From: an uncultured Verrucomicrobia subdivision 3 bacterium | Lineage (GTDB): Bacteria > Verrucomicrobiota > Verrucomicrobiia > Limisphaerales > UBA11358 | Length of the DNA: 53,725 nt | Assembly (NCBI GenBank): GCA_903833055.1 | Contig: CAILDU010000143.1 | Coordinates: 1-53,725 of the forward strand | Direction of reading: 5' to 3' | In this document: one piece after another, positions 5,143 through 36,604 of the stretch | Numbering within the stretch: the stretch's first letter is position 1 | How the letters are laid out: every line of letters begins with the position of its first letter | Notes under the pieces: generated by a model | The model's database searches: none | What the model was told of the DNA's origin: nothing | The model's input: only the letters and a program-made list of their open reading frames with translations | Translations under genes and position numbers: made by a program

Positions 5143-6459
5143 TCAGATGGCGAAGTCCGCGTATTCCGGCTTGGCAGCTTCGAGCGGCGGAAACAACATG
5201 CCCGCCGCGACCGTCGCGTTCGAGCCTTGTTCCACAAGGATGAACGAGCCGGTAAGCCGGTTCGTTTCGTAGCCGTCGAACAAGAGTGGTTTCGCCGTCT
5301 TGAGGCGAATCGTGCCGATGTCATTCAGCGCAAGTCCGGCGGGATTCGGTTCTGCATCGAAGGTTTCAAAGTTGATTCGATTTTCAATCTGCGTCACCGC
5401 GACCTGAACCATTTGCGTCGTGTGCTTGAGATAAAACTTTTTGCCCGCTGACAACGGACGTTGATTCATCCAGCAAATGCGCGCCTGCAAATCGGTGCTG
5501 CGCCCCGGCAAATTTTCGAGGCCGACAATCATATCGCCACGGCTTACGTCAATGTCGTCCGCCAAACAAATTGTCACCGACTGCGGACAAAACGCTTCGG
5601 CGAGCGAACCGTCGTAACTCCAAATTTCTTTCACCTTGGATTTAATTCCGGCGGGCAGGATGACGACTTCCTGACCCGCGCGCACGATGCCGCTGGCGAT
5701 TTGTCCGCTCAAGCCGCGAAAATCGTGCAGCTCCTTGTTCGTCGGATTGTTCGGACGGTTGACCCATTGCACCGGAAAACGGAACGTGCTCAAATTCCGG
5801 TCGCTCGCGATGTGGACAGTTTCGAGATGATGCAGCAATGCCGGCCCTTCAAACCACGGCGTTTTCGTGGAAGCATCCACGACGTTGTCGCCGGACAGCG
5901 CGCTCATCGGAATAAATTTTACGTCGTGAAACGAACCGAACTTCGGCAGAAAATCTTCAATCTCATCGCGAATTTCCGTGAAGCGTTCCTCGCTCCAATC
6001 CACCAAATCCATTTTGTTGATGGCGATGACGAGATGTGGAATGCCAAGCAGCGCCGCGATATAAGTGTGTCGGCGCGTCTGCTCAATGACGCCCTGTCGC
6101 GCGTCCACCAGCACGATGGAAAGATTTGCCGTGCTCGCGCCCGTGACCATGTTGCGCGTGTATTGCACATGACCCGGCGTGTCGGCGACGATGAATTTTC
6201 TTTTCGGCGTGGCGAAGTAACGATACGCGACATCAATCGTGATTCCTTGTTCGCGTTCGGCGCGCAGTCCGTCGGTGAGATTGGCCAAATTTATTTGCCC
6301 ACCGCCGGTGATGGTGGCGGATTTTTCCATCGCCTCGATCTGGTCTTCCATCAGCGACTTGGAATCGTAAAGCAACCGGCCAATGAGCGTGGACTTGCCG
6401 TCGTCAACACTGCCGCAAGTATTGAAGCGCAAAAGTTCGATGGGATGCGTATGGGGCAT
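5143..6459 (-). CDS. cysN: sulfate adenylyltransferase subunit 1 (GTPase)
   Basis: GSVDDGKSTLIGRL P-loop and DTPGH motif, EF-Tu-like architecture, adjacent to cysD. Confidence 0.9.
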   Translation of the reverse strand: MPHTHPIELLRFNTCGSVDDGKSTLIGRLLYDSKSLMEDQIEAMEKSATITGGGQINLANLTDGLRAEREQGITIDVAYRYFATPKRKFIVADTPGHVQYTRNMVTGASTANLSIVLVDARQGVIEQTRRHTYIAALLGIPHLVIAINKMDLVDWSEERFTEIRDEIEDFLPKFGSFHDVKFIPMSALSGDNVVDASTKTPWFEGPALLHHLETVHIASDRNLSTFRFPVQWVNRPNNPTNKELHDFRGLSGQIASGIVRAGQEVVILPAGIKSKVKEIWSYDGSLAEAFCPQSVTICLADDIDVSRGDMIVGLENLPGRSTDLQARICWMNQRPLSAGKKFYLKHTTQMVQVAVTQIENRINFETFDAEPNPAGLALNDIGTIRLKTAKPLLFDGYETNRLTGSFILVEQGSNATVAAGMLFPPLEAAKPEYADFAI

Positions 6460-6494
6460 TTTAGGAGATGGGAGTTGGCAGATGGAAGTTAGGG
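6460..6494. repeat. heptamer tandem array (5 units: TTTAGGA GATGGGA GTTGGCA GATGGAA GTTAGGG) filling the cysN / four-helix-bundle intergenic gap
   Basis: Read directly: 7-nt periodicity over 35 nt. It contains TAGGAGATGGGAG, the inverted partner of 6870-6887. Confidence 0.8.
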
Positions 6495-6869
6495 TTATGC
6501 GACTCGCGCGCGGGTGGAACGAATCAGACCGGAAACCAATCGCCCGGTTTGGGCGACTTGTTCAAGCAATGTTTTATGTTCTTGTTCAGAAAGGTAACTC
6601 GCATCAAGCATGACGTAAGATAGCGAACGCACCTCGCCACAGGAAGCGCGTGCTACATTGTAAAATTGCAATTTCTCGCCCGGATGAACGCGTTCAAAAC
6701 CTTCGGCAATATTGGTCATGGCCGATACGGCCGCGCGCTGAATCTGATCTCGCAACCCGAAATCAAGCGACGCGGGTTTGCGCCGGAAGAAAGCATAAAC
6801 TGCCCGAACAAGTTCCCTTGCCGTGCGCCAGGCCTCAAGTTGCTCAAAATTTTCAATCCTATCTGTCAT
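6495..6869 (-). CDS. four-helix-bundle protein (23S rRNA intervening-sequence protein / Avd family)
   Basis: 124 aa, all-helical. The FEQLEAWRTARELVRAVY start and NIAEGFER...A.GE motif are characteristic of the TIGR02436/PF05635 family. A GGAG sits directly upstream of the ATG. Confidence 0.8.
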   Translation of the reverse strand: MTDRIENFEQLEAWRTARELVRAVYAFFRRKPASLDFGLRDQIQRAAVSAMTNIAEGFERVHPGEKLQFYNVARASCGEVRSLSYVMLDASYLSEQEHKTLLEQVAQTGRLVSGLIRSTRARVA

Positions 6870-6887
6870 CTCCTATCTCCTATCTGC
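6870..6887. repeat. heptamer array (CTCCTAT CTCCTAT CTGC), inverted partner of 6462-6474
   Basis: The reverse complement GCAGATAGGAGATAGGAG matches TAGGAGATGGGAG at 6462-6474 in 12 of 13 positions. Confidence 0.75.
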
Positions 6888-7826
6888 TTAAAAGTATCCT
6901 GCTTTCTTCCGGTCTTCCATCGCGGCTTCGGAAGCTTTGTCGTCAGCGCGAGTGCCGCGTTCCGTGACGCGCGCGGCGGCGACCTCGGCGATGATGTCAT
7001 CAATCGTGTCCGTCTTCGATTCAATCATGCCGGTGCTGATCATGTCGGCGATGGTGCGGACGCGGACAATCATTTTTTTAATCGGCTCGTTCTGCTTGGG
7101 GCGTGCACCGGCAAATGGATCGGACTTGGTTGAATCAGTATGCGGAGGCGGCACGGGCAACCACTGTCCACCGCGCCAAAAACAATCGCGCTCGTGGCTG
7201 AAATAAAGATTCGGCACTTCGAGTTTTTCTTTTTTGATGTATTCCCAAACGTCCATCTCCGTCCAGTTCGAGAGCGGAAACACGCGCATATTTTCGCCCG
7301 GATTTAACTTGGCGTTGTAAAGATTCCAGATTTCCGGGCGCTGATTTTTCGGATCCCACTGGCCGAACGAATCGCGGAAGCTGAAGAAACGTTCCTTCGC
7401 ACGGGCCTTTTCCTCGTCGCGGCGCGCGCCGCCGATGGCGCAATCGAATTGAAATTCCTCAATCGCGCCGAGCAGCACGGGAATTTGCAGCTTGTTGCGG
7501 CTGATTTCGCCGGGTGCGGGATGCGCGTGACCTTTGGCGATGGCTTCATCCACGGTGCGGACAATCAGCTTCGCGCCAAGCTCCTTCGCGCGACGATCAC
7601 GGAACTCAAGCAGTTCGGGAAATTCATGGCCGGTCTCGACGTTCAGAAACGGCATCGGAATATCGGACGGACGGAACGCCTTTTCCGCGAGGCGCAGCAA
7701 GCAGATGGAATCCTTGCCGCCGGAAAACAGCAAGGCGGGGCGTTCAAATTCGGCGGCGACTTCACGCATGATGTGAATCGCCTCGGTTTCCAGATACTGC
7801 AAATGATCCAAGTGATAGCTGCTCAT
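6888..7826 (-). CDS. cysD: sulfate adenylyltransferase subunit 2
   Basis: LFSGGKDS PP-loop motif, CysD length and C-terminal basic tail. Lies in an operon with cysN and cysH. Confidence 0.9.
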   Translation of the reverse strand: MSSYHLDHLQYLETEAIHIMREVAAEFERPALLFSGGKDSICLLRLAEKAFRPSDIPMPFLNVETGHEFPELLEFRDRRAKELGAKLIVRTVDEAIAKGHAHPAPGEISRNKLQIPVLLGAIEEFQFDCAIGGARRDEEKARAKERFFSFRDSFGQWDPKNQRPEIWNLYNAKLNPGENMRVFPLSNWTEMDVWEYIKKEKLEVPNLYFSHERDCFWRGGQWLPVPPPHTDSTKSDPFAGARPKQNEPIKKMIVRVRTIADMISTGMIESKTDTIDDIIAEVAAARVTERGTRADDKASEAAMEDRKKAGYF

Positions 7827-7844
7827 TTTGACACGGTAATTTTA

Positions 7845-8282
7845 GACACGGATTTCACGGATTAGCACGGATTTTTACAAAATAACTCTTTTCCACTCCA
7901 GTGAATCACCACCGAAGTTGACCAGCAAACCAACGTGCAACTTCGATGCGGCCAGATAATTCAAGACCTGCTTGACGTGCGGGTCAGCCAGTCGTTCGAC
8001 GGCTTTTGCCTCGAATAGAATTTTTCCTTCGACCACAAAATCAGCAAAATAAAAATGCGGTAGGATGACATCCTTGTATTTCACTTCAAATTTCTGTTCG
8101 CGTGCAAACGGAACATTCGCGCGACTTAATTCCACCACAAGTGCATCTTTGTATAGGACTTCATCGTGTCCTTTGCCCAGTTCGCGATGAATCTCCATGC
8201 AAAGCCCGATCAAACGGTGCGTGTCTTCGCGATAGAGAATTTCAGACATAAATAATCCGTGAAAATCCGTGCAATCCGTGTC
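7845..8282. mobile_element. cassette A: 438-bp TIR-bounded, TA-flanked element carrying one GxxExxY gene
   Basis: Left arm 7845-7874 is GACACGGATTTCACGGATTAGCACGGATTT. The reverse complement of 8253-8282 is GACACGGATTGCACGGATTTTCACGGATTA, identical in 26 of 30 positions. Each arm has three CACGGAT units with mirrored 9/10-bp spacing. TA lies at 7843-7844 and 8283-8284. Confidence 0.7.
7875..8249 (-). CDS. GxxExxY family protein (PD-(D/E)XK-like fold)
   Basis: The 124-aa core MSEILYRE...HRELGKGHDEVLYKDAL...DFVVEGKILFEAK...LVNFG matches the TIGR04256 GxxExxY pattern. The ORF-track start at 8327 runs into the repeat arm, so I prefer the ATG at 8249. Confidence 0.8.
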   Translation of the reverse strand: MSEILYREDTHRLIGLCMEIHRELGKGHDEVLYKDALVVELSRANVPFAREQKFEVKYKDVILPHFYFADFVVEGKILFEAKAVERLADPHVKQVLNYLAASKLHVGLLVNFGGDSLEWKRVIL

Positions 8283-8944
8283 TAGTTTTTCACGGCTTTG
8301 CCGCCCCAGCTTGCGTGCAAACCGCATTCGCGCTTTTCATCCGCCTTGGCCGGATCAAAATAATCCCACTCGTTGGGCAGGTTGTGCTGTTTCAGATAAT
8401 TTTCCATGTCCGCGTCGCTCCAGTAAAAGAGCGGGCTGACTTTCAGTGAATTGAAATTCTTGTCCTCGCTCACGATGTCGAGTTCCGCGCGATTCGGATT
8501 TTGCACTTTCCGCAACGCGGTGAGCCAGACGGTTGGCGCAAGTTCCTTCATGCCGCGCTGGAACGGTTCGAGTTTCATCGCGGTGCTGAAGGCTTTGATG
8601 CGCGCTTCATTTTCCGGCGTCGGTTCCGGCATGCCGCCGAACGCGGCGTCGTAATGCGCGGCGGTCATCTTCGGGATGTAAGCCTTGATGTTAAGCTTGA
8701 GCAATTTTTTAACTTCTTCGGCGTGCTTGTAAGTCGCGGGACGATTGTAACCGTGGTCAACCCACAGCACCGGAATGTCCGGCTGAACTTGTGTGACCAA
8801 GTGAAGAATCACCGCTTCGTAAGGCCGATAATTCGTCGAGACAATCGCGCGGCCATTCGCCTGCGCGATGGCCCACTTTACGATTTCCAGCGGCGATTTA
8901 GAACGCAACTCGGCGTTGGTTTGAGCAATTTGTTCAGAAGTCAT
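8282..8944 (-). CDS. cysH: phosphoadenosine phosphosulfate (PAPS/APS) reductase family protein
   Basis: PP-loop-type fold and C-terminal ECGLH motif, located between cysI and cysD. Its TAG stop is formed at the junction with cassette A. Confidence 0.8.
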   Translation of the reverse strand: MTSEQIAQTNAELRSKSPLEIVKWAIAQANGRAIVSTNYRPYEAVILHLVTQVQPDIPVLWVDHGYNRPATYKHAEEVKKLLKLNIKAYIPKMTAAHYDAAFGGMPEPTPENEARIKAFSTAMKLEPFQRGMKELAPTVWLTALRKVQNPNRAELDIVSEDKNFNSLKVSPLFYWSDADMENYLKQHNLPNEWDYFDPAKADEKRECGLHASWGGKAVKN

Positions 8945-8945
8945 T

Positions 8946-10631
8946 TTAGTTCGCAGCGACAGATTGCTCGTTCAAAAACACGCGGTCGCACCAGTCGCCG
9001 AAACGTTCGCTGGCGTTGCGTTCCTTTGCGAAACGCGCGAGGACGGGGCGCAATTCATTTTCGATGTCGGGATCTTTCATGACATCCTTCCAGACGCGAT
9101 TCAGGCGCGTGCCGGTCGCATCGCCGCCGAGCCAGACTTGATAACGTCCCGGCGCTTTGCCGACGAACGCGATTTCCGCCATGTAAGGCCGCGCGCAACC
9201 GTTCGGGCAGCCGGTCGAGCGAATAATAATTTCTTCGCTGCCGAGGCCGAGGTCGTCGCAAACTTTTTGAAGGCGGTCAATCAAGCCGGGCAGATAGCGT
9301 TCGGATTCCGCGAGGCCGAGGCCGCACGTCGGCAGCGAGGGACACGCCATCGAAGCCGCGTGCAAAATCGTGGTTTGATTTTCCGTCTTCACGCCATGCG
9401 CGGCGAGAATCGCGTTGATGGCCGCTTTGTCCGCATCCGAAACATTCGCGAGAATGAGATTTTGATTTGCGGTCAAACGGAATTCCACCTTTGGAAATTT
9501 ATCCGCGACCTGACGCAAACCTGTTTTCATTTTGCAAACGTCCGTGTCTTTCACGCGACCCATGCTGACGAATAGGCCGAGAAAATTGCTGCCGTCAACC
9601 GCCTTGCGCCAGTCGAGCAAGTCGGCGGTGGTCGTAAATTTGTAAGGTGCATTCGGCGCAAGCGTGATGCCGGCGCGCTTATTCACCTCGTCCTGCATGA
9701 ATTTTACGCCGCGTTCGGCTACGACATATTTCAGGCGCGCGTGCTTGCGGTCGGTGCGGTCGCCGAAATCGCGATGAATTGTCAGGACAGCTTTCGCCAC
9801 TTCGACAACTTTGTCCGGCGTGAAAAATCCGATGACGTCCGCGAGGCGCGGATATGTCTGCGTGTTGCCGTGGCTGCGACCGAGTCCGCCGCCGACGCAC
9901 AAATTGTAGCCGATAAGCTTGTCGTTCTCGACCACGGCGATGAAGCCGAGGCAGTTCGTGAACAAATCCAAATCGTTCACCGGCGGAATGACGAACGCGA
10001 TTTTGAATTTGCGCGGCAAATACGTTTTGCCGTAAAGCGGATCCACGAAATTTTTATTTTCCGCCGCGTCGTTGTCGAGCTGCACGCCATCAATCCAGAT
10101 GGAATGATACGCCTTGGTCTGCGGCGCGAGCGCGAGCGCGACTTTGTGCGCGTCGGCAAAAACCTGTTCGCGCGCGGGTGTGTAAGCGGGCGTGGGCGGC
10201 GCGAGAACATTGCGATTTACGTCGCCACAAGCCGCGAGCGTGGAGAGCAGGCACTCGTTAATTTTTTTGACGAGCGGTTGCAATCCGGCCATCACGACGC
10301 CGTGAAACTGGATGCTCTGGCGCGTGGTGATTCGCAAAGTATTATTGCCGTAATCCGTCGCGAGTTGGTCGAAGACGCCGTATTGTTTGGCCGTCATGAC
10401 GCCGCCGGGAATGCGGCCGCGAATCATCATGATATATTTTTTGCCGGTCTTGCGAAGGTCGCGGTCGTCCTGCTGATACGAGCCGTGAAATTTCAGGAAC
10501 TGGTTGTCGTCCTCGGAGAAATGGTCGTTGGCCGGATCGTTGAACGTCGCGGCAATCGTGCCGGCCAAGGTCGGGATGGCGGCCTTGATGTCTTCGTTGT
10601 GTGTCAATTTGACTGGTGCTTCAGCGCTCAT
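8946..10631 (-). CDS. cysI: assimilatory sulfite reductase hemoprotein (siroheme/4Fe-4S)
   Basis: TGCPNGCARP and CPSLPTCGLG cluster-binding motifs; 561 aa. Confidence 0.9.
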   Translation of the reverse strand: MSAEAPVKLTHNEDIKAAIPTLAGTIAATFNDPANDHFSEDDNQFLKFHGSYQQDDRDLRKTGKKYIMMIRGRIPGGVMTAKQYGVFDQLATDYGNNTLRITTRQSIQFHGVVMAGLQPLVKKINECLLSTLAACGDVNRNVLAPPTPAYTPAREQVFADAHKVALALAPQTKAYHSIWIDGVQLDNDAAENKNFVDPLYGKTYLPRKFKIAFVIPPVNDLDLFTNCLGFIAVVENDKLIGYNLCVGGGLGRSHGNTQTYPRLADVIGFFTPDKVVEVAKAVLTIHRDFGDRTDRKHARLKYVVAERGVKFMQDEVNKRAGITLAPNAPYKFTTTADLLDWRKAVDGSNFLGLFVSMGRVKDTDVCKMKTGLRQVADKFPKVEFRLTANQNLILANVSDADKAAINAILAAHGVKTENQTTILHAASMACPSLPTCGLGLAESERYLPGLIDRLQKVCDDLGLGSEEIIIRSTGCPNGCARPYMAEIAFVGKAPGRYQVWLGGDATGTRLNRVWKDVMKDPDIENELRPVLARFAKERNASERFGDWCDRVFLNEQSVAAN

Positions 10632-15018: not shown

Positions 15019-15234
15019 TCACAAATTATCCACGAATTCTTCCGGTGAGATGCCCGCCTGACGCAACACGCCGCGCAACGTGCCTTGATCCACTTCACGG
15101 TGCATCGGCACAACACAGACGCTGCCGCCGCGCCGCAGCACGAGATGGCTGCCTTTTTGCCGCTGGCGGACGAAGCCCAGACGCTCCAGTGCTTTCGCTA
15201 CCTTTGCGCCGGAAACGCAGGGGAGTTTAGGCAT
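15019..15234 (-). CDS. hicA: HicA-family mRNA interferase toxin
   Basis: 71 aa; KVAKALERLGFVRQRQKGSHLVLRR is a typical HicA/YcfA pattern. Confidence 0.8.
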   Translation of the reverse strand: MPKLPCVSGAKVAKALERLGFVRQRQKGSHLVLRRGGSVCVVPMHREVDQGTLRGVLRQAGISPEEFVDNL

Positions 15235-15436
15235 GTTCCAACTCGAAGGTGGTCAGGATGGCGCCGCTGCGGTCGGGCAGGTCCTGCTCCTCCAGAAACA
15301 GCGACGTGGCTTCCTTGAGATTTTTCAACGCCTCCTCGACCGTCTTGCCCTGCGTGGTCGTGCCGGTTTCGGGATTGTAGGCCACCAGCCAGCGTTTGGT
15401 TTCACCGGGATAGATAATCGCCGTGAGCGTCTTCAT
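15227..15436 (-). CDS. hicB: HicB-family antitoxin (UPF0150-type)
   Basis: 69 aa with the GKTVEEALKNLKEA motif. Overlaps hicA by 8 nt. Confidence 0.75.
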   Translation of the reverse strand: MKTLTAIIYPGETKRWLVAYNPETGTTTQGKTVEEALKNLKEATSLFLEEQDLPDRSGAILTTFELEHA

Positions 15437-15611
15437 GCGGCCAAGCTAAACGATGCCGACACCGTTGGCAAATGGGGAAAAACATTCTTGACCGTTGATT
15501 CTCGCGGATTGACGCGGATAATTTTCCGGCGCACACTCGCCGCTGTCCGAAAATAAAATACAAACAACGATTATTATTTAATTAACAATTTTGCGTAGCT
15601 ACGGCTACGGG

Positions 15612-15726
15612 CTGCACCGAAAACCTGGAAATTTTCAAGCCCGCACACAGCAACCGACCGAGCGCGCCCAAATGGGCGCGGCTTGGCGTGCTTGCTGTGT
15701 AGGCGCTTCCAGGTGCCTCGGTGCAG
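15612..15726 (+). ncRNA. GC-rich rod-like hairpin (about 115 nt), candidate structured RNA or leader upstream of the methyltransferase
   Basis: Nested complementary segments: CTGCACCGA/TCGGTGCAG (15612-20 with 15718-26), CCTGGAA/TTCCAGG (15624-30 with 15707-13), ACACAGCAA/TTGCTGTGT (15645-53 with 15692-700), and CGCGCCC-AAAT-GGGCGCG (15663-80). An AT-rich stretch precedes it and a T-run follows at 15748-56. Strand is assumed from the downstream genes. Confidence 0.45.
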
Positions 15727-15791
15727 GGTGCGTTAAGTCCGCGCCTCTTCTTTTTTAGAATTCCCGTTTCCGCCCGCTCGCAGCGGAAACC

Positions 15792-16778
15792 ATGGCAACT
15801 AAAAGTTCAAATTCATTTTTGCAAAAGGCAAAGTCCGCAAAAAAGGATGAGTTTTACACGCAACTTTCTGACATTGAGAAGGAACTAAAAAATTACAAAG
15901 CGCATTTGAAAGGCAAAGTCGTCTTGTGCAATTGCGACGACCCGCGCGTCAGCAATTTTTTCCACTATTTCTCTTACAAATTTAAGCAGTTAGGGTTGAA
16001 GAAGCTCATCGCAACCTGCTACAAAAATCAGTGTGCTGACCTCTTCAGTCAAAACGATTCAGAAAAGGCGATCTACTTGGAATATAATGGTGACAAAAAT
16101 GGAAACAACATTCCCGACTCCGAAGAAATCGGCATTAAGCAATTAAAAGGCGATGGCGATTTTCGCAGTGCTGAATGTGTTGAGCTATTGAAGAGGGCAG
16201 ACCTCGTCGTGACCAATCCACCGTTCTCCCTATTCCGGGAATATGTTGCCCAACTCGTCGAACATGATAAGAAATTCATTATCATCGGCCACCAGAATGC
16301 GATTACCTACAAAGAGATCTTCAAGCTGATTAAGGAAAATAAACTATGGTTGGGATATGGCTTCAACCGTAATTGCGCGCACTTCATAAACCGGCATTAC
16401 GTTGATTATGCATCAGACGCCGACCACAGGGAAGGAATGATAAGAGTTTCAGGCGTTCAATGGTTCACAAATATGGACACCACGAAACGCCACGAAGAAT
16501 TAATTTTATACAAAAAATATCATCCTAACGAATATCCAAAATACGACAATTACGATGCAATCGAAGTTAGCAAGACGACGAATATTCCGATGGATTATGC
16601 CGGCCCTATGGGCGTTCCCATTACGTTCCTTAACAAATATAATCCCGACCAATTTGACATCTTGGGAAATCTTGGTTCGTATGCGCCTGATGGCTATTCC
16701 TTGATTGGGGCAATTTTCATCAACAAAAAGAAGATTTATAAACGCATCCTTATAAAAAATAAAAAACCTTTGGTATGA
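15792..16778 (+). CDS. adenine-specific DNA methyltransferase, EcoRI-methylase-like family
   Basis: DEFYTQ N-terminal motif, VTNPPF catalytic motif (NPPF), 328 aa, AT-rich codon usage. Confidence 0.75.
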   Translation: MATKSSNSFLQKAKSAKKDEFYTQLSDIEKELKNYKAHLKGKVVLCNCDDPRVSNFFHYFSYKFKQLGLKKLIATCYKNQCADLFSQNDSEKAIYLEYNGDKNGNNIPDSEEIGIKQLKGDGDFRSAECVELLKRADLVVTNPPFSLFREYVAQLVEHDKKFIIIGHQNAITYKEIFKLIKENKLWLGYGFNRNCAHFINRHYVDYASDADHREGMIRVSGVQWFTNMDTTKRHEELILYKKYHPNEYPKYDNYDAIEVSKTTNIPMDYAGPMGVPITFLNKYNPDQFDILGNLGSYAPDGYSLIGAIFINKKKIYKRILIKNKKPLV

Positions 16779-17881
16779 ATATTGAACTGAAAAGAATAAC
16801 CGTTGGCGAATTGGCGGATGGCTATGAAGACAACGCGGAAGGTGGCGTTGTTGCGTTCGGCGGCAAGCTGGACGTGCGGCCGCCGTATCAGCGGGAGTTC
16901 ATCTACAAGGACAAGCAGCGCGATGCCGTCATCAACACCGTCACCAAAGGTTTTCCGCTGAACGTGATGTATTGGGCGGTGCGTGCGGACGGCGGCTTTG
17001 AGGTGATTGACGGGCAGCAGCGCACTATTTCCGTTTGCCAGTATGTGACGGGCGTTTTTTCGTTTCAAAACTTGTATATCCACAATCTGCCAGACGACGT
17101 GCGGGAAAAAATTCTCGGCTACAAGCTCATGATTTATCAATGCACCGGCACGGACAGCGAGAGGCTTGATTGGTTCAGAACGATCAACATTGCAGGAGTA
17201 AAACTATCAGACCAGGAATTGCGGAACGCCGTCTATGCCGGCTCGTGGGTTTCCGACGCGAAACGATATTTCAGCAAAACAGGCTGTGCCGCATATCAAA
17301 TCGGACAAGATTATCTCGATGCTGAACTAAATCGTCAGGGATATTTGGAGACCGCTATTGATTGGATTTCGGAAGCATATGGGAACGCGGACATCATCGA
17401 GAAATACATGGGCAAGCATCAGCACGCTAAAGACGCCAAGAAGCTTTGGGAGTATTATCAAGCGGTGATTGATTGGGTGGGTGAAACATTTACCAAGAAG
17501 CGAAGCAAAATAATGAAGGGCGTTCCGTGGGGTGTTCTCTACAATAAATTTAAGGACGAAAAGTTTGACCCGAAGAAAATCGAGGCAGAGACGGTGAAGT
17601 TGATTGACGATGACGAAGTGACAAATCAAAAAGGAATTTACCGATACATTTTGACGCGCGACGAAAAATATCTCTCGCTCCGCACGTTCAACGATAAGGA
17701 GAAGCAAAAGGCTTACGAAAAACAAAAAGGCATCTGCCCGAAATGCCCGAAGTCAAAGCATTGGGAGCTTGAAGAAATGGAAGCCGACCACATTACGCCG
17801 TGGCACGCAGGCGGGAAAACCATGCTGGATAATTGCCAGATGCTTTGCAAAGACCACAACCGGAGAAAGTCAGGGAAGTAA
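16775..17881 (+). CDS. DUF262 (ParB/Srx-like NTPase) - HNH endonuclease fusion protein
   Basis: The N-terminal RPPYQREFIY...IDGQQR motif is typical of DUF262. The C-terminus CPKC...EADHITPWHAGGKTMLDNCQMLCKDHN is a canonical HNH. An ATGA overlap couples it to the methyltransferase. Confidence 0.8.
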   Translation: MNIELKRITVGELADGYEDNAEGGVVAFGGKLDVRPPYQREFIYKDKQRDAVINTVTKGFPLNVMYWAVRADGGFEVIDGQQRTISVCQYVTGVFSFQNLYIHNLPDDVREKILGYKLMIYQCTGTDSERLDWFRTINIAGVKLSDQELRNAVYAGSWVSDAKRYFSKTGCAAYQIGQDYLDAELNRQGYLETAIDWISEAYGNADIIEKYMGKHQHAKDAKKLWEYYQAVIDWVGETFTKKRSKIMKGVPWGVLYNKFKDEKFDPKKIEAETVKLIDDDEVTNQKGIYRYILTRDEKYLSLRTFNDKEKQKAYEKQKGICPKCPKSKHWELEEMEADHITPWHAGGKTMLDNCQMLCKDHNRRKSGK

Positions 17882-17889
17882 TCCGTGTT

Positions 17890-19278
17890 TCATCCGTGTG
17901 CATCTGTGGTATTCCGTTTTTCTGAAAATTGTTTCCGCCAGTTTTCGAGGCGCTCCTTGATTTTCTTTTCCACGCCTTGTTCCGTCGGCTCGTAATAAGT
18001 TTTGTCCACGCCCAGATAATCTTGCGCGACGAAATGGTCCTTGCCGTCGTGCGCGTATTCGTAGCCTTTGCCGTGGCCGAGCCGTTCCGCACCCTTGTAA
18101 CTTTTATCGCGCAAATGTTCCGGCACGGCCAGCGTGCGACCGGAACGCACGTCTTCCAGTGCGGCGTCAATCGCCATGTAAGCGGAATTACTTTTGTTTG
18201 CCGTGGCGATGTAAATCGTCGCTTCGGCCAATGGAATCCGCGCTTCCGGCCAGCCGACAAATTCCGACGCGGCGAGGCACGCGTTCGCCAAAACCAAAGC
18301 CATCGGGTCGGCGAGGCCGACATCTTCCGCCGCGCAAATCACGATGCGCCGCGCGATGAAGCGCGGGTCTTCGCCGGCGTGAATCATCTTGGCGAGCCAG
18401 TAAAGCGCGGCGTCGGGATCGCTGCCGCGCATGGATTTGATGAACGCGGAAATGGTGTCGTAATGCGCGTCGCCATCACCGTCATAAACCACGGCCTTTT
18501 TCTGGATGCTCTGCGCGGCGACTTCCAGCGTGATTCGGACAACGCCATCAGTATCTGGTGAAGTTGTCAGCGCGGCGATTTCGAGCGAGTTGAGCGCCTT
18601 GCGCGCGTCGCCGTCGGCGATTTTGGCAAGATGGCGCAAGGCGTTTTCATCGGCGGAAATTTTCAGATAGCCGAGACCGCGTTCCTCGTCTTTCAACGCG
18701 CGTTGCAGCAATGAAAATAAATCTTCTTCCGTCAGCGGGCGCAGTTCGAAGATTTGCGAGCGCGAGACGAGCGGCGAATTGACGAAGAAAAACGGATTGT
18801 GCGTCGTCGCGCCGATGAGCTTGATGACGCCGCTCTCGACATCCGGCAGCAAAACATCCTGCTGTGATTTGTTGAAGCGGTGGATTTCGTCAATGAAGAG
18901 AATTGTGGATGCGCCAGTGTTTTCAAGGCGATTGGCCGCTGCTGACAAAACGCGCCGCATATCGGCGACGTTGGATTCCACGCCGCTCAATCTTTCAAAT
19001 TTTGATTTGGTCTGCCGCGCGATGATTTGCGCGAGCGAGGTTTTTCCCGTGCCGGGCGGCCCGTAAAAAATCAGCGACTGGATTCTATCTGCTTCAATGG
19101 CGCGGCGCAAAAGTTGGCCGCGGCCGAGGATGTGGGTTTGCCCAGCATACTCATTTAAGTTGCGCGGGCGCATCCGCGCGGCGAGCGGCTGGCTGCGAAA
19201 GTTATTTTCGGCGGCGGACACAATTTCTTCTTCCGGCAATGCTTTTGCCGGTTGGGAAAATAGTTCGTCGCGCGCCAT
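17890..19278 (-). CDS. rarA: replication-associated recombination protein A (AAA+)
   Basis: GPPGTGKTS Walker A, IDEIHRF box and MgsA C-terminal domain. The last codons and the stop lie inside the right repeat arm of cassette C. Confidence 0.9.
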   Translation of the reverse strand: MARDELFSQPAKALPEEEIVSAAENNFRSQPLAARMRPRNLNEYAGQTHILGRGQLLRRAIEADRIQSLIFYGPPGTGKTSLAQIIARQTKSKFERLSGVESNVADMRRVLSAAANRLENTGASTILFIDEIHRFNKSQQDVLLPDVESGVIKLIGATTHNPFFFVNSPLVSRSQIFELRPLTEEDLFSLLQRALKDEERGLGYLKISADENALRHLAKIADGDARKALNSLEIAALTTSPDTDGVVRITLEVAAQSIQKKAVVYDGDGDAHYDTISAFIKSMRGSDPDAALYWLAKMIHAGEDPRFIARRIVICAAEDVGLADPMALVLANACLAASEFVGWPEARIPLAEATIYIATANKSNSAYMAIDAALEDVRSGRTLAVPEHLRDKSYKGAERLGHGKGYEYAHDGKDHFVAQDYLGVDKTYYEPTEQGVEKKIKERLENWRKQFSEKRNTTDAHG

Positions 19279-19346: not shown

Positions 19347-19382
19347 TGCCGGGTTGCTAAAAGCAGTCCGGTAATCTTGAAA

Positions 19383-19570
19383 GAAACCCCGCCATTGCCG
19401 TGTCTAACTGTATCCTTCGGACATATGTTTCCATATGTGGGACTCGCCCGATGGCTTACAACTTTCGGACGTAATGCCGACGTGTTGGCCACCGTCTGCG
19501 GCTCATCCCGAGTTCGTTTTATTTACGGTCCAAGGACTGTTGCGAATCACGCACAGGGCAGGGAAATTAT
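19383..19570 (-). ncRNA. ssrS: candidate 6S RNA
   Basis: On the minus strand, the 5' end AAUUUCCCUGCCCUGUGCGUGAUUCGCAACAGUCC and the 3' end ACAGUUAGACACGGCAAUGGCGGGGUUUC resemble the E. coli 6S termini. The closing stem CCCUGCC-CUGUG pairs with CACGG-caau-GGCGGGG using G-U wobbles. Length is about 190 nt, in a 450-nt gene-free gap, followed by a terminator. Confidence 0.5.
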
Positions 19571-32030: not shown

Positions 32031-34352
32031 ATGAGTTCAGGACATGGACATCGGCACGAAGAACCGGCGGCAATTTGTCTGGCGCGCTGCGTCGCTGATA
32101 CATTTTCCGAGGAGCCGATGCTGGAAGCGGTGACGATTGATACTGTGCAAAAGAAAATTTCCGTCGCTACGCTCGGTCGCGCCGACGTGGAAAAACTCAC
32201 ACAAAAAATTTCTGCTAAAATTTCGTCCGCACAAAATTCCGCTGCCAGCGAAACCTGTTCTTTATTTTCCGGCAAAAATAATTGCGCCGTGTGCGACTCG
32301 CCATTGTCTGCGAACGAACAAAAACTTATCACCATCCACCGCGACGCCACGGCTACGACCATCGCGCGCGTCACCTGTCCGACCGCACCGAAGTTCTGGC
32401 GCTGGCGCGATATTCCGTTTCCCAAAATTGCGCCGCGCGAAATGGAAATCCACGACGACGACCACCACATTGACGAATGGAAAGGCCAGCTCGTCCTCGC
32501 CATCGCGTGTGGCGTGGCCGGATTGACGGCTTACTTTTTCGGCAAAGCCGATCAACCGGGAATCGCCATTATTAGCTACGCCATTGCTTATCTCGCGGGC
32601 GCATTTTTCGCCGCCGAAGAAGTTTTGGAGCGTCTACACAAACGCATATTGGACGTGCATTTTCTCATGCTTGCCGTTGCGTTTGGCGCGGCCACCATCG
32701 GTGCGTGGGCGGAAGGCGCGACGCTGCTATTTCTGTTTTCCTTTTCCGGCGCACTGGAGCATTACGCCTTTGGCCGCACGCAGAAGGAAATCCGCTCGCT
32801 CTTCCGCGATGCGCCGAAAACCGCCACGCTCATTGACGCGAATGGAAACGAAACAGAAATTCCCGTTGAAAACATTTCCAAAGGCGTGCGTTTGCTCATC
32901 AAGCCCGGCGCGCAATTTCCCGTGGACGCGGAAATCGCCAAGGGAAACACCGCTGCGGATGAATCCAATCTCACCGGTGAAGCTGCGCCCGTCGAAAAAA
33001 TCATTGGCGACACCGCGCTCGCTGGCACTTTGAATCTTTGGGGCGCGGTTGAAGTCATCGTCCTGCGACCGGCGGCGGAAAGCTCGCTGCAAAAAATCAT
33101 CACGCTCATCCGCGAGGCGCAGCATCAGAAAGCGCCCGCGCAAATGTTTGCCGACAAGTTCAGCACCTTTTACACTTACGGCGCGCTCGGCCTGTCGCTC
33201 GCGATGTTTTTTGTGTGGCGGTTTGTTTTGAATTATCCGGCGTTCACTTCCACCGCCGAAGTTCACAGCGCATTTTATCGCACGATGACGCTGCTCGTCG
33301 TGTCATCGCCGTGCGCGCTCGTGCTGTCCATCCCGTCCGCCGTGCTGGCGGCAATCGCGTGGGCGGCGCGGCATGGAATTTTATTTCGCGGCGGCGCAGC
33401 GGTGGAAAAACTGGCCGAAATCAACGTCGTCGCGCTCGACAAAACCGGCACGCTCACGACTGGCGAACTGCGCGTGGAACAGGTGGAAAGTTTTCCGCCC
33501 GGACGCGAAAATGAAATCGCGCAGCTTGCGTATTCGCTGGAAAAATTGTCCACGCATCCGCTCGCCCGCGCCATCACGCGCCACGGCAAACAGCAGAATC
33601 TCGCGACGCACGAATTCTCGCAGTTTGAATCCGTCACCGGCCAAGGCTTGAAAGCGAAGCGCGATGGCAAAGAAGTTTTTTTGGGCAAACGCGAATGGGT
33701 GGAGACGCAAATGGCGCGCGGTGAATTTGCCGCGCCGCAATCCGGCGTGGGCACGTCCGAAGTCTGGATTGCCAGCGACGGTTTGATTGGCCGCGTTGTG
33801 TTGCGCGACGACATCCGTCCGCAGTCGGCGGAGGTGATGGCGCAATTGCGCGCACGCGGGCTGCATATTGTTGTGCTGACCGGCGATCGCGAAGCTGCCG
33901 CTGAACATTTGCGAACGGAATTAAAACTCGACGACGTGCGCGCCGAGTTGAAGCCGGAACAAAAAGTCGCGGCAATTCAGGAATTTTCCGCTGCCGGAAA
34001 AAAGGTGGCGATGATTGGCGACGGCGTGAATGACGCGCCGAGTTTGGCCGTCGCGCATATCGGCGTGGCAATGGGCGCGCGCGGGGCGGACGCCGCGTTG
34101 GAGCAGGCCGACGTGGTGCTGATGAACGACAAGCTGGAAAATTTTCTCGCTGCGTTCCGTTTGAGCCATCGCGCGCGGAGCATTATCCGGCAGAATCTTT
34201 TTATCTCGCTCGGCACGGTCGTCGTGCTGGTGACGTTCGCGTTGTTCGGCAAAATCCCGCTGACCCTCGGCGTGGTCGGCCACGAAGGCAGCACGGTCAT
34301 CGTCGTGATGAACAGCCTGCGGCTGCTATTCGGGGGTGGGAAAAAACTTTAG
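32031..34352 (+). CDS. heavy-metal translocating P1B-type ATPase (SPC motif)
   Basis: DKTGTLT phosphorylation site, SPC in the transmembrane metal site, GDGVNDAP hinge and a His-rich N-terminus (GHGHRHEE). Confidence 0.9.
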   Translation: MSSGHGHRHEEPAAICLARCVADTFSEEPMLEAVTIDTVQKKISVATLGRADVEKLTQKISAKISSAQNSAASETCSLFSGKNNCAVCDSPLSANEQKLITIHRDATATTIARVTCPTAPKFWRWRDIPFPKIAPREMEIHDDDHHIDEWKGQLVLAIACGVAGLTAYFFGKADQPGIAIISYAIAYLAGAFFAAEEVLERLHKRILDVHFLMLAVAFGAATIGAWAEGATLLFLFSFSGALEHYAFGRTQKEIRSLFRDAPKTATLIDANGNETEIPVENISKGVRLLIKPGAQFPVDAEIAKGNTAADESNLTGEAAPVEKIIGDTALAGTLNLWGAVEVIVLRPAAESSLQKIITLIREAQHQKAPAQMFADKFSTFYTYGALGLSLAMFFVWRFVLNYPAFTSTAEVHSAFYRTMTLLVVSSPCALVLSIPSAVLAAIAWAARHGILFRGGAAVEKLAEINVVALDKTGTLTTGELRVEQVESFPPGRENEIAQLAYSLEKLSTHPLARAITRHGKQQNLATHEFSQFESVTGQGLKAKRDGKEVFLGKREWVETQMARGEFAAPQSGVGTSEVWIASDGLIGRVVLRDDIRPQSAEVMAQLRARGLHIVVLTGDREAAAEHLRTELKLDDVRAELKPEQKVAAIQEFSAAGKKVAMIGDGVNDAPSLAVAHIGVAMGARGADAALEQADVVLMNDKLENFLAAFRLSHRARSIIRQNLFISLGTVVVLVTFALFGKIPLTLGVVGHEGSTVIVVMNSLRLLFGGGKKL

Positions 34353-35594
34353 CCACAGATTTCCACAGATGAAACACAGATGGGGAAACGCCAAGACATT
34401 AAGTCGCCGACCAGAATTCAATTTGCTATTAAACGGTTTAGTTCGCCGTAAGTCTTACCTCGGTGTTTTTCAATAAAAGTTGCTAAAACGCGCCAATAAT
34501 TTCTTTTACGATACTTGGTAAGTGTATTGCATAACCAAGTAATGCAGCCCCTACTATCACAAGTTGTTTATGTTTATTAAACACTTTATGCCTCGCAATA
34601 GAATAGGCGGGTCGTTTAATTGCGCCCCATAATGTTGAATGAATGGAAAGCAGCCCTGCTAGAGTGAGTAGCAGGACAACCAAAAACAACCACGCCACTC
34701 CATAAAATCCCAAGAAACAAATTACATAGTCAAAATGAGAGTGTGCTACGAATCCATATAAAACTCGCCCCGTGCTATCAGTGTTTTTGTAAAGACTGCT
34801 ACTCATTGTATAGACAATAAATCCTATAACCATTAAGGCTAAAATTATCCCCTTACTTTTGTTATTAGATTTTTTGCCTATGAATACAGTTTCAACAACA
34901 TTACGAAATATAGGTGGAAACTGAATAATTGCTATCAATGCAAATACAAGAGGGGGCGCATTGATAAACAAATAATCAATCATAGTCATATCGGGATATA
35001 CGTCAGGGCTGATTTTTGAAAAATAAAACGTATCTGTTACTATTTGACATAAGAAAACAAGGATGGAAACCGTAGCAGTAATTAACCACAGCCGTTTACT
35101 TTGCTGATATGTCTTTAGAAGCGGTGATAGTAACAATGCGAGAAATGAGACAGCGAAACTGAATTGGCTAACATTGTGTAATAGGAAATAGTCCAAAGTT
35201 AGTCCCCTGCTCGCAAAATATATTGTGCAGATAGACACCATGGAACTTATTGTAAGAAAAGATAAGCAGCAGTTAGAAACCAGATTTTGTTTAGTCCATA
35301 CCTTATCACCAAAGATTTTAGTTATCCCTAAATTAGCAGCCAGTCCTAGTTTCTGAATAATTGTGACATGGCCACGAATAGCTTTTTCACTCTTTTCATC
35401 TAGAAATCGCCAAAGCTCATCTAACTTATTATGTATAGTATTTTCCTCATTTTCATAAAGGAAAAGACCGCAATACACAAATACCGCACCGGCCATTCCA
35501 GCCAAGCAATGAGAATCAAAAACAAGCCAGTCCATATTTTTGTTTTACTGGATAGGCTTGCCGAATCTGTGTTTCATCTGTGGAAATCTGTGGC
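34352..35594. mobile_element. cassette D: 1243-bp element with perfect 30-bp terminal inverted repeats and TA/TA flanks, carrying one AT-rich membrane-protein gene
   Basis: 34352-34381 GCCACAGATTTCCACAGATGAAACACAGAT is identical (30 of 30) to the reverse complement of 35565-35594. Each arm has three CACAGAT units, spaced 10/11 bp and mirrored. TA lies at 34350-51 and 35595-96. Confidence 0.8.
34483..35535 (-). CDS. orphan polytopic membrane protein (about 8-9 predicted TM helices)
   Basis: 350-aa ORF, strongly AT-rich, with multiple long hydrophobic segments. I recognise no family motif. Confidence 0.6.
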   Translation of the reverse strand: MDWLVFDSHCLAGMAGAVFVYCGLFLYENEENTIHNKLDELWRFLDEKSEKAIRGHVTIIQKLGLAANLGITKIFGDKVWTKQNLVSNCCLSFLTISSMVSICTIYFASRGLTLDYFLLHNVSQFSFAVSFLALLLSPLLKTYQQSKRLWLITATVSILVFLCQIVTDTFYFSKISPDVYPDMTMIDYLFINAPPLVFALIAIIQFPPIFRNVVETVFIGKKSNNKSKGIILALMVIGFIVYTMSSSLYKNTDSTGRVLYGFVAHSHFDYVICFLGFYGVAWLFLVVLLLTLAGLLSIHSTLWGAIKRPAYSIARHKVFNKHKQLVIVGAALLGYAIHLPSIVKEIIGAF

Positions 35595-36604
35595 TAGGAC
35601 TTGGGCGGCGCGGTGCTTTTGCGTTCCACAAATTCGGCGGCGAGGCGTTTCAACTGGATTTTTTCGCCGCGAATCAGCTTCATCATTGTTTCCATCGCCG
35701 TTACGCCGAGCCGGTATTTCGGCTGGCTGACGGTGGTGAGTGGCACGCGATAATGTTCCGCCGTCAAAATATTGCCAAAGCCGACGATGGAAATGTCGCC
35801 GGGAATTTTGATGCCCTGTTGCAATAAAGTTTCCGCGCAGCCGATGGCCACAAGGTCGCTCACGGCCATGATGGCGGTCGGCTCGACGCCTTCGTTGAGC
35901 ATCTGCAACGCGGCTTTCGTGCCGTCTTCAATGGTGTTGCCGGATTGAAAAACCAGTTTGTCGTCCACCTCGATGTTCGCTTCGCGCAGCGCGCGGCGGA
36001 AACCCTCGAAGCGTTCGTGCGCCCACGGCGCGGCGGGCGGGCCGGTGAGATAGGCAATTTTTTTATGGCCGAGCGCGATGAGATGTTTCGTGGCGTTGTA
36101 GCTGGCGACGAGTTCCTCGATTTCGATGGCGGGAAAATTTTTACAAAACGGCGCGGGCGAACCGAGCAAAATGGTCGGCGTATTGCGTGCAATAATTTCC
36201 TGATAAATCCGCGCTTCGGCTTCGAAGCGATAAACGGGAACAATAAAAAGTCCATCCACGCGGCGCGAAAGCAGTCGGCGCAGGCAGGCGTCCTCGCGTT
36301 CGGGTTTGTTGTAAGTGTGGCAGAGCAGTAGGTCGTAACCGAGTTCGTGGGCGCGTTCCTCGATGGCAAAAACGATGCGCGCGTAAATGGGATTCGTCGT
36401 GGACGGAATGACGAGGCCAAACAGTTTGGTGGTCTTGGTGCGGAGACCTTGCGCGCTGGAATCGGGAACGTAACCCATGTCCGCCGCGAGTTTTTTGATC
36501 TTGGCTTTGGTGGCGGCGGAGACATCCGGCTCGTCGCGCAAGGCTTTCGAGACGGTCATCACGGAGACGCCGACGATTTGGGCAATGTCTTTTAAGCGAA
36601 CCAT
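35594..36604 (-). CDS. LacI-family transcriptional regulator
   Basis: N-terminal HTH MVRLKDIAQIVGVSVMTVSKALR followed by a periplasmic-binding-protein-like sugar-binding domain. Confidence 0.9.
   Translation of the reverse strand: MVRLKDIAQIVGVSVMTVSKALRDEPDVSAATKAKIKKLAADMGYVPDSSAQGLRTKTTKLFGLVIPSTTNPIYARIVFAIEERAHELGYDLLLCHTYNKPEREDACLRRLLSRRVDGLFIVPVYRFEAEARIYQEIIARNTPTILLGSPAPFCKNFPAIEIEELVASYNATKHLIALGHKKIAYLTGPPAAPWAHERFEGFRRALREANIEVDDKLVFQSGNTIEDGTKAALQMLNEGVEPTAIMAVSDLVAIGCAETLLQQGIKIPGDISIVGFGNILTAEHYRVPLTTVSQPKYRLGVTAMETMMKLIRGEKIQLKRLAAEFVERKSTAPPKS

Follow-up and report, generated by a model that had tools for sequence, protein, structure and literature searches.

A 53,725-nucleotide stretch of DNA from an uncultured Verrucomicrobia subdivision 3 bacterium (contig CAILDU010000143.1 of assembly GCA_903833055.1), referred to here as the window, has a small gene of the GxxExxY family lodged between cysH and cysD and enclosed by two mirrored arrays of the heptamer CACGGAT. 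What kind of element is this insertion, designated cassette A, and do its arms act in DNA or in RNA? The initial annotation, made without database searches, favored a nonautonomous transposon with TA ends typical of IS630/Tc1-mariner and named a stem in the operon mRNA as the alternative. The comparisons described below leave about an even chance that cassette A is an ancient, nonautonomous copy, polymorphic for gain and loss, of a family of heptamer-array palindromes that extends across phyla, with ends that would serve as multisite protein-binding arrays in a cassette cotranscribed with its operon.

According to this model, the heptamers would bind a sequence-specific, multimerizing protein, which would bring the two ends together and mediate gain, loss, and inversion at the DNA level without a fixed target duplication. 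The mobilizing enzyme may be unlinked, or it may be the GxxExxY nuclease itself, which is the obvious candidate. Because the enzyme is not encoded in most copies, the element is considered to be nonautonomous.

Architecture of cassette A and conservation of its arms

Cassette A sits in the spacer of ~10 nt between cysH and cysD, in the orientation of the cys operon (Table 1). An inverted-repeat search of the window recovered its arms as two 34-nt sequences, 88% complementary, that bracket the GxxExxY gene with 374 nt between them. The best inverted-repeat score was 26, compared with 13.9 ± 2.6 in 200 dinucleotide shuffles; one shuffle scored 27, a value on which the double counting of contiguous palindromes by this score bears. 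Units of CACGGAT start at positions 7847, 7856, and 7866 on the forward strand and at 8255, 8265, and 8274 on the reverse strand, so that the spacing on both arms, reading inward, is 9 and then 10 bp. Six of the 11 copies of CACGGAT in the window fall within the two arms, and the expectation for the whole window is 7.2 ± 2.5. The initial annotation had described this arrangement of mirrored triple units around a GxxExxY gene between cysH and cysD, its spacing, and the absence of a transposase from the cassette, and all of these were borne out in their essentials; its count of 26 identical positions in 30-nt arms became 27 of 30 when the same arms were recounted.

Both outer ends of the cassette read TA (7843-44 and 8283-84). 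The stop codon of cysH (CTA at 8282-84, TAG on the coding strand) is the outer TAG of the cysH-side arm, and ~5 codons have disappeared from the end of the cysH gene of the window at this junction, which leaves a shortened C terminus fused to the stop codon of the element. The ATG of the cargo gene is 5 nt inside the cysH-side arm, and its TAA is 5 nt ahead of the other arm. Given this co-orientation, and with no promoter- or terminator-like site found when such sites were looked for in the cassette, cassette A is probably transcribed as part of the cys operon. Since one arm contains the stop codon of cysH and the start codon of cysD comes after the other, the insertion is probably kept nonpolar, with cysD expression maintained by terminating ribosomes and/or by RNase III processing of the arm duplex, as in rRNA intervening sequences (IVSs). 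A search of the whole window against Rfam at the gathering threshold returned only a 6S RNA (19382-19567, reverse strand; RF00013, 65.9 bits), and positions 7700-8400, searched at a permissive E value, gave no match for the arms.

A partial unit beside the start codon of cysD had been interpreted as a solo fourth copy left by repeated visits to the site. The same partial unit is kept in the orthologous cassettes at loci L207, L208, L160, and L193, and it looks like a part of the cysD-side end of the cassette rather than proof of repeated visits. That the junction has been colonized repeatedly is indicated instead by nested and adjacent elements (see below).

Both the gene and its arms have been constrained. 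The dN/dS ratio among ten orthologous cassettes was 0.04 to 0.12 (median, 0.07). When the window was compared with L207 (dS of the ORF [open reading frame], 0.88), the cysH-side arm was identical at 30 of 30 positions and the other arm at 28 of 30, and in L142, L162, and L191, for which dS was saturated, 26 to 29 of 30 arm positions were identical. Overall, the arms were 87 to 100% identical at dS values from 0.8 to saturation. Conservation at such divergence indicates that the arms are functional sequence and not decaying scars. Judged by these substitution rates, gene and arms are both old and under purifying selection in the lineage of the window.

The two arms were compared in 75 elements that were ascertained on one arm only, and the partner arm was scored. 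Heptamer columns of the partner arm were 95.7% identical (n = 1,538), whereas spacer columns were 67% identical (n = 400). The phased triple units thus behave as recognition sites, as the initial annotation had supposed. Mirrored units did not covary in the 18 elements with both CACGGAT and CACAGAT (31 of 54 agreed; 32.4 were expected). Among 51 junction elements (L128 to L208, oriented by operon; the loci are not independent), the antisense strand was the more stable in 33 and the sense strand in 18, with a mean antisense-sense folding difference of 3.8 kcal/mol and 201 G-U pairs in antisense versus 140 in sense. The greater antisense stability could stem from a G-to-A bias of the coding strand or from a structure with a role on the opposite strand. 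Conservation of the heptamers, lack of covariation, and the antisense bias together give no sign of selection on a sense-strand RNA helix. Phased and individually conserved as they are, the heptamers have a look that points to an array of protein-binding sites rather than to a simple stem.

Tandem heptamers are known from RNA structures. The IVS in the 23S rRNA of Coxiella burnetii is 428 nt long, with a 28-bp terminal stem built on three tandem GACAGAT units upstream of an S23p ORF of the IVP family (23S rRNA intervening sequence/four-helix-bundle proteins); repeat number varies by strain, RNase III cleaves at the first repeat, and a mobile origin has been proposed, never shown (PMC4990558). 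The short tandemly repeated repetitive (STRR) elements of cyanobacteria are tandem 7-bp repeats that form hairpins between operon genes (hupS-hupL), and their function is obscure (PMC2670836). It is possible, therefore, that cassette A is purely an RNA-level element, the arms of which form a long-range stem in the cys transcript that RNase III excises or insulates as in the 23S IVS, with DNA that is not actively mobile. When the RNA of the cassette was folded, both the minimum free energy (MFE) and the centroid structures contained the stem of the two arms (z = -5.2), the cargo always has the orientation of the cys operon, and the arms have been conserved over long times, all of which would suit an RNA element. 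However, neither the noncomplementary spacers, nor the mirrored units without covariation, nor the more stable antisense fold is expected of such an element, and a mere stem would not need the exact heptamer that several phyla have in common. Furthermore, it is in DNA that presence and absence, nesting, and inverted orientation arise at a single site, and one IVP cassette is antisense to its host operon. The IVS-like stem that the initial annotation offered as its alternative thus holds as a resemblance in architecture and in the predicted folds, and not in the pattern of base changes; an RNA-level element seems unlikely as a full account of cassette A.

Orthologous junctions and the wider array family

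A metagenome scan with cysH yielded 80 loci with a cysH 78 to 94% identical to that of the window. Junctions without an element, which the initial annotation had expected among relatives, were present: in ~20 loci the cysH-cysD spacer was of an empty type, 5 to 14 nt long (e.g., TAA tttttcaaa ATG). The empty site that had been reconstructed by excising the cassette and one TA did not match them, as the real ones read ...GGAGI* TAA tttttcaaa ATG. In ~25 loci the spacer was a heptamer palindrome of 50 to 180 nt with units of CACGGAT, CACAGAT, CGCAGAT, CACGAAT, or a GGAGAT type. GxxExxY cassettes with TAGACACGGAT-type arms occupied the junction in L142, L160, L162, L168, L177, L191, and L193, and at L190 the same arms surrounded an internally deleted GxxExxY gene. 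Nine loci had an IVP cassette with TCTGGCG/CCAGACG arms of period 7. The nearest relatives of the window (L129, L130, and L134 in a tree of 1,510 nt of cysH plus cysD; Jukes-Cantor distance, 0.12 to 0.13; cysD dS, ~0.6) were empty, and occupied loci were scattered over the tree. The ratio of cargo distance to flank distance was 0.7 to 1.05 among the window, L207, and L208, compared with 1.25 to 2.8 for other pairs, which hints at lateral spread into the same site among these three and is not decisive.

Similar elements are found elsewhere in the window. The next junction of the operon, between cysD and cysN, holds cassette B, with an IVP gene whose start codon is inside the arm (array of GCAGATA GGAGATA GGAGATG...); in relatives, this junction was empty or contained CACGGAT palindromes, IVP cassettes, or other cargo. 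A search of the window for clustered units, with one mismatch allowed, added elements C and D (Table 1). The cargo of element C is a multipass membrane ORF of 350 amino acids without a family match, and the P-type ATPase and LacI genes that converge on this element both draw TAG stop codons from its ends. The arrays of element D lie on either side of a type II restriction-modification pair, which consists of an EcoRI-like methyltransferase and a restriction enzyme with GmrSD_N and HNH domains (PADLOC REase_II, E value of 4e-130), and element D may represent a third cargo type of the same family.

At the site of element C, relatives with a 89 to 92% identical LacI keep the arms in the same position around an interior of only 85 to 100 nt. 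No clean empty site was seen there, as all LacI relatives in this range of identity carry arms. In L212 (3509-3655), the interior is a piece of the 3' region of the cargo of the window, inverted relative to the flanks, and in L216 (3509-3666), the loop has a palindrome of the CGCAGAT type nested within it. Changes such as inversion, nesting, and internal deletion take place in DNA. Across orthologous junctions, elements are present, absent, replaced, or inverted, depending on the lineage.

The table lists the positions of these elements and of the genes around them.

TABLE 1 Positions of cassette A, its sister elements, and the surrounding cys genes in the window
Feature	Position	Strand	Description
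cysN-like EF-Tu-type GTPase	5143-6459	-	Name rests on family and context
Cassette B	6460-6887	-	IVP/four-helix-bundle gene (PF05635) between cysD and cysN; mirrored period-7 arrays of GGAGAT[A/G]
IVP ORF	6495-6869	-	124 aa; 23S rRNA intervening sequence/four-helix-bundle protein
cysD-like gene	6888-7826	-	312 aa; PAPS_reduct family; directly downstream of cassette A; name rests on family and context
Extra partial unit GACACGGTAATTT	7830-7842	-	CCGTGTC on coding strand; 16 nt past downstream arm; adjoins cysD ATG
cysD-proximal (downstream) arm of cassette A	7843-7876	-	Coding strand aaaa-ATCCGTG-cta-ATCCGTG-aa-ATCCGTG-TCTA
Cargo gene of cassette A	7875-8249	-	124-aa GxxExxY/PDDEXK_3 nuclease-fold protein; PDDEXK_3, E value of 6.7e-34; TIGR04256, E value of 8e-38
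cysH-proximal arm of cassette A (upstream on coding strand)	8251-8284	-	TAGA-CACGGAT-tg-CACGGAT-ttt-CACGGAT-tatt
cysH-like PAPS reductase gene	8282-8944	-	220 aa; PAPS_reduct family
Sulfite reductase gene	8946-10631	-	
Element D (probable sister)	15503-17908		CGCGGAT x2 (15503-15519) and ATCCGTG/ATCTGTG x3 (17881-17908); left arm weak
Element C	34350-35596		Perfect 32-nt inverted arms (34350-34381 and 35565-35596), three CACAGAT each

Just upstream of the methyltransferase gene, there is a near-perfect hairpin of 115 nt (15612-15726; -91.6 kcal/mol, z = -6.6) without an Rfam match, and two small overlapping ORFs on the reverse strand (15019-15436) were judged by eye to be HicB antitoxin-like (69 amino acids) and HicA toxin-like (71 amino acids). 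In a related lineage (L208 to L211, 1340-1789), an AbiEii-like gene of 149 amino acids lies between the sulfite reductase gene and cysH; the cys operon of this clade gathers small inserted genes at several junctions.

The initial annotation had implied a repeated family, and further copies were present not only in the window but also far beyond it. A census of the pattern CACGGAT-N2-4-CACRGAT-N2-4-CACRGAT, with one genome per species, gave at least 170 matches at at least 120 loci; ~10 matches would be expected at uniform base composition. The hosts were Verrucomicrobiota, Planctomycetota, Acidobacteriota, several proteobacterial classes, Leptospirales, Bacteroidota, and others, as well as, among the archaea, Methanosarcinaceae and Methanoperedens. 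Each end is built of CACRGAT-type heptamers, as a rule three (range, two to four), that are phased at about one helical turn, and the two ends are mirror images. Such elements occupy the few bases between genes, often lending or borrowing stop codons. Among the matches listed there were 66 facing pairs of arrays, 58 of which, with gaps of 3 to 168 nt, were gene-less palindromes of ~60 to 220 bp. Most copies, palindromes of 60 to 170 bp, have no gene, and a minority contain cargo. The GxxExxY gene was the commonest cargo of CACRGAT arms among these matches; it was found in the window, in L007 (Terriglobia), L052 (Verrucomicrobiota), L054 (Pyrinomonadaceae), and L074 (Schlesneria), and in L093. 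L002 carries a PIN/antitoxin island and L058 two unknown genes, and the further cargoes were the membrane protein of element C and the restriction-modification pair. ORFs inward of unpaired arrays resembled ordinary host genes, except for one IS-like N terminus (L102) recognized by eye. Short CACGGAT palindromes also occurred in tandem runs (L043, 1013-1768; L104, 4510-5204; L106, 3828-4294), for example as six palindromes at a spacing of ~131 nt in a deltaproteobacterial metagenome-assembled genome.

The TA ends of cassette A had suggested to the initial annotation a nonautonomous transposon of the IS630/Tc1-mariner type, that is, a miniature inverted-repeat transposable element (MITE) or mobile insertion cassette (MIC) that inserts at and duplicates TA and depends on a DDE transposase in trans. 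Cassette A and element C do both have ends that read TA-G...C-TA, and terminal inverted repeats, the lack of an internal transposase, and the dispersal of the family would all suit such an element. However, TA is self-complementary, so that TAGAC...GTCTA is as much an inverted repeat as a duplication, and in cassette A by itself the two are indistinguishable. TA is missing from many ends, which read TGAAC, TGGC, or TTGC instead; the outer consensus of the arrays is TTTARC, and L191 is flanked by TGA...TGA. The empty spacer TTTTTCAAA has no TA, and L207 retains the native end of cysH (GGAGI, TAA), followed by ttt and then TAGACACGG. When 38 paired elements were scanned for direct repeats of 2 to 5 bp at near-symmetric offsets (left-flank offsets of 0 to 11, right-flank offset within 2 of the left), none exceeded shuffled controls; the only direct-repeat signal came from the palindromic GC that adjoins the first unit. 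IS630 elements do not typically end in three phased heptamers. A transposase-bearing copy was absent from the window and from the at least 120 loci, a search that was not exhaustive. An IS630-type transposon is thus very unlikely, and membership in this group was rejected on the lack of both a consistent TA duplication and a transposase-bearing copy. Cassette A still works like a nonautonomous mobile cassette.

Genes carried between heptamer arrays

The cargo of cassette A scored well above the curated cutoffs of both of its profiles (117 bits for PF13366, cutoff of 22; 129 bits for TIGR04256, cutoff of 35), and the GxxExxY/PD-(D/E)XK residues G27, E30, Y33, D70, E/D80, and K82 were conserved in six distant members. 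An AlphaFold2 model built from 28 close homologues had a pLDDT of 57 and provided no structural support for a role of GxxExxY in mobility. A sequence search of the PDB gave no match for GxxExxY and matched IVP only to 2gsc (XCC0516), and no defense model in PADLOC matched GxxExxY, IVP, or the cargo of element C. Approximately 15 of the best 150 family representatives were tandem two-domain GxxExxY proteins of 250 to 282 amino acids (P0260, P0279, P0286, P0288, and others).

Because the census was based on arrays, GxxExxY and IVP genes were also sampled from PLSDB replicons without regard to arrays (8 and 6 genes, respectively). All six of the eight GxxExxY genes that had annotated neighbors were wedged co-directionally between genes, in contexts that included fabD-X-fabG-acpP (Sphingomonas), radA-X (Bacteroides), and ade-X (Bernardetia). 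Inverted unit arrays flanked four of the eight: Bernardetia and Bacteroides had arrays of mirrored CACAGAG, Treponema had a mirrored CACGGAT unit, and Gemmatirosa had a CGCGGAT palindrome. Two more had direct repeats, which contained ATCCGTG in Fusobacteria and ACAAAT units in Prevotella. Array sequences were also evident in overlong ORF calls of family representatives, which encode the peptides HGFHGLHGF, DTDFTDSTD, and PQITQISQIS and, at the C terminus, SAKSAKSADS. Viral contigs were considered as a further unbiased source of GxxExxY genes, and a single-protein scan of them confirmed no locus.

Five of the six IVP genes were wedged co-directionally between genes, and five of six had tandem arrays in mirrored arrangement, the unit being different in each (TAGGGAG x8, GAGTCAG, AGGAGAT, AAGGTT[TC], and GGGAAAA). 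One IVP gene, on a Picosynechococcus plasmid, lies with heptamer arms between cas10/cmr2 and cmr3 (L228, 656-1085). Another, on a Nostoc plasmid, lies antisense between nrdA and nrdB (L229, 601-1099) within (TAGGGAG)x8 and (CTCCCTA)x5 arms. The cmr-located IVP gene matches one that was interpreted earlier as functionally associated with CRISPR-Cas and as a candidate cas gene (PMC3936711).

The recurrence of GxxExxY genes between arrays raises the possibility that the nuclease is itself the mobility enzyme of an autonomous, minimal selfish element, either homing-type or specific for hairpins or cruciforms, which reads the heptamer arrays and carries the other copies as passengers. Its place as the commonest cargo of CACRGAT arms would fit this, as would the C[AG]C[AG]G[AG][TG]-type units that flank GxxExxY genes sampled blind to arrays in Bacteroidota, Spirochaetota, Gemmatimonadota, and Fusobacteriota and in family-wide representatives. 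The conserved catalytic residues, the low dN/dS, and the size of the family, of which this query alone detected 10,884 representatives at 50% identity, also speak for this possibility, and when the window, L207, and L208 are compared with one another, the cargo is younger relative to the flanking genes. On the other hand, the protein has a single domain of 124 amino acids without an obvious DNA-binding module, and neither the AlphaFold2 model nor the PDB and PADLOC searches lend it such a role. The short palindromes lack GxxExxY remnants, and IVP cassettes share the architecture without having the nuclease. Moreover, proteins 77 to 85% identical have either CACGGAT or CACGAAT arms, so specificity is not tightly coupled to the protein. 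An autonomous element built on this nuclease is thus doubtful.

The same gene could instead be a domesticated host module in which GxxExxY serves the host, for example in defense or repair, with arrays that are operator-like, stabilize the mRNA, or couple translation, and with presence and absence reflecting ordinary gene gain and loss. Strong purifying selection, long retention at one locus, and the defense-like nature of other cargoes (restriction-modification, toxin-antitoxin) could be explained in this way. Most copies, however, have the same arms and no gene, the same junction has been colonized by unrelated cargo and unit types, insertions are found in unrelated operons (fab, radA, cmr, and nrd), and known defense models were not matched. 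It seems highly improbable that cassette A is a host module.

Several observations count against the interpretation of cassette A as a nonautonomous member of a dispersed, protein-bound family. No transposase or recombinase was found between arms, or recurrently beside arrays, among the at least 120 loci. No identical copies were seen at different sites, so that recent transposition lacks support. Remnants of the GxxExxY gene in the loops of short palindromes were no more frequent than in a shuffled control, except at L190. The closest GxxExxY homologues (90 to 92% identity) are all in the same junction, and their cargo dS of 0.8 to 0.9 is similar to the dS of the flanking genes; these two findings indicate that the cassette is old and largely vertical in descent, with losses and/or reacquisition by recombination, and much of its distribution could have arisen by vertical inheritance and loss. 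The arms of the IVP type draw on many unrelated unit sequences, and in this class complementarity and repetitiveness may outweigh any specific site. Finally, protein binding, cotranscription, and RNase III cleavage are parts of the model that we infer from the arrangement of the locus.

Relation to known systems and implications

Among known systems, cassette A most resembles the rRNA IVSs of Coxiella and Leptospira, in which a small ORF likewise lies within tandem-heptamer inverted repeats, co-oriented in a highly transcribed unit, and for which a selfish or mobile origin is suspected. Their ORF family, PF05635, supplies the cargo of cassette B, 1 kb from cassette A, and that of the junction IVP cassettes in relatives, and cassette A has the inverted arms (34 nt) that form a stem and the three heptamers per arm. 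Unlike an IVS, it is located at an mRNA operon junction rather than in an rRNA helix (9, 25, or 45), and its cargo is a PD-(D/E)XK protein of the GxxExxY type rather than a four-helix bundle. The heptamers of the rRNA IVSs are contiguous, whereas those of cassette A have noncomplementary spacers of 2 to 4 nt (period, 9 to 11).

STRR-like arms provide a second parallel, because IVP genes of Nostoc, Aulosira, and Calothrix in the plasmid sample carry exactly such arrays. To judge from the title of a 1997 paper by Vioque, cited in PMC4748335, the RNase P RNA gene contains STRR sequences as well. STRR arrays are contiguous, have been described from heterocystous cyanobacteria only, and have no described link to cargo, whereas the CACGGAT units of cassette A are separated by spacers and extend from Verrucomicrobia to many phyla. 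With mirrored 7-bp units of period 9 to 11 and a verrucomicrobial host, cassette A is a poorer fit to STRR than are cassette B and the IVP cassettes. Cassette A is thus a heptamer-armed cassette of the IVS/STRR type that differs in cargo, spacing, host phylum, and mRNA location. Searches of the literature on repeat sequences, on GxxExxY/PF13366/TIGR04256, and on small dispersed repeats found no description of CACGGAT arms and no link of GxxExxY genes to them; coverage was incomplete, and a prior description is possible.

Other elements are functional analogues, and each fails at least one defining feature. Correia/NEMIS (Neisseria miniature insertion sequence) and enterobacterial repetitive intergenic consensus (ERIC) MITEs are short, cotranscribed intergenic palindromes whose presence varies among orthologous sites; RNase III takes NEMIS hairpins as substrates, and Correia elements are flanked by TA. 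These elements are restricted to a genus or family and have noniterated repeats, no cargo, and a defined TA duplication, whereas the heptamer family crosses phyla and has no consistent duplication. MICs and transporter insertion sequences also carry a passenger gene within inverted ends without a transposase, but MIC ends match a known insertion sequence family that has one, and no such partner was found for cassette A. Repetitive extragenic palindromes (REPs) and REPINs likewise consist of hairpin-forming short repeats in inverted doublets and are very abundant, intergenic, nonautonomous, and without target duplication. They differ in their GTAG or CGTC tag (compare the outer consensus of the cassette family), single palindromes, species specificity, and linked RAYT (REP-associated tyrosine transposase); no Y1/HUH gene was seen near arrays among the at least 120 loci, with no genome-wide test. 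Integron cassettes (attC) are similar as promoterless single genes with an imperfect palindrome, the outer bases of which often read ...AAC/GTT.... The arms of cassette A, however, are on both sides of its gene, no array lies beside an integrase, the cassettes are isolated in operon junctions, and no R''-L''/L'-R' organization was demonstrated.

A broader proposal would treat GxxExxY and IVP genes with mirrored arrays as one superfamily of minimal selfish elements that unites IVSs, STRRs, and thousands of operon-junction hitchhikers, with the encoded protein acting on the heptamers to move or maintain the element. This proposal is tentative and, on present evidence, improbable. If it were true, the superfamily would span bacteria and some archaea, and its small protein would be a new and very small mobility or maintenance enzyme.

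GxxExxY and IVP proteins are among the most numerous uncharacterized small proteins of environmental bacteria, and they have so far been read as partners in the operons in which they are found. Their status as cargo of arrays recasts these genes as hitchhikers, and a single architecture ties together two puzzles that date from about 1990, the intervening sequences of rRNA and the STRRs of cyanobacteria. CACRGAT arrays, as duplex, hairpin, or RNA, are testable substrates for both proteins. Such cassettes also change the stop codons and C termini of neighboring genes and confound the prediction of function from operons.

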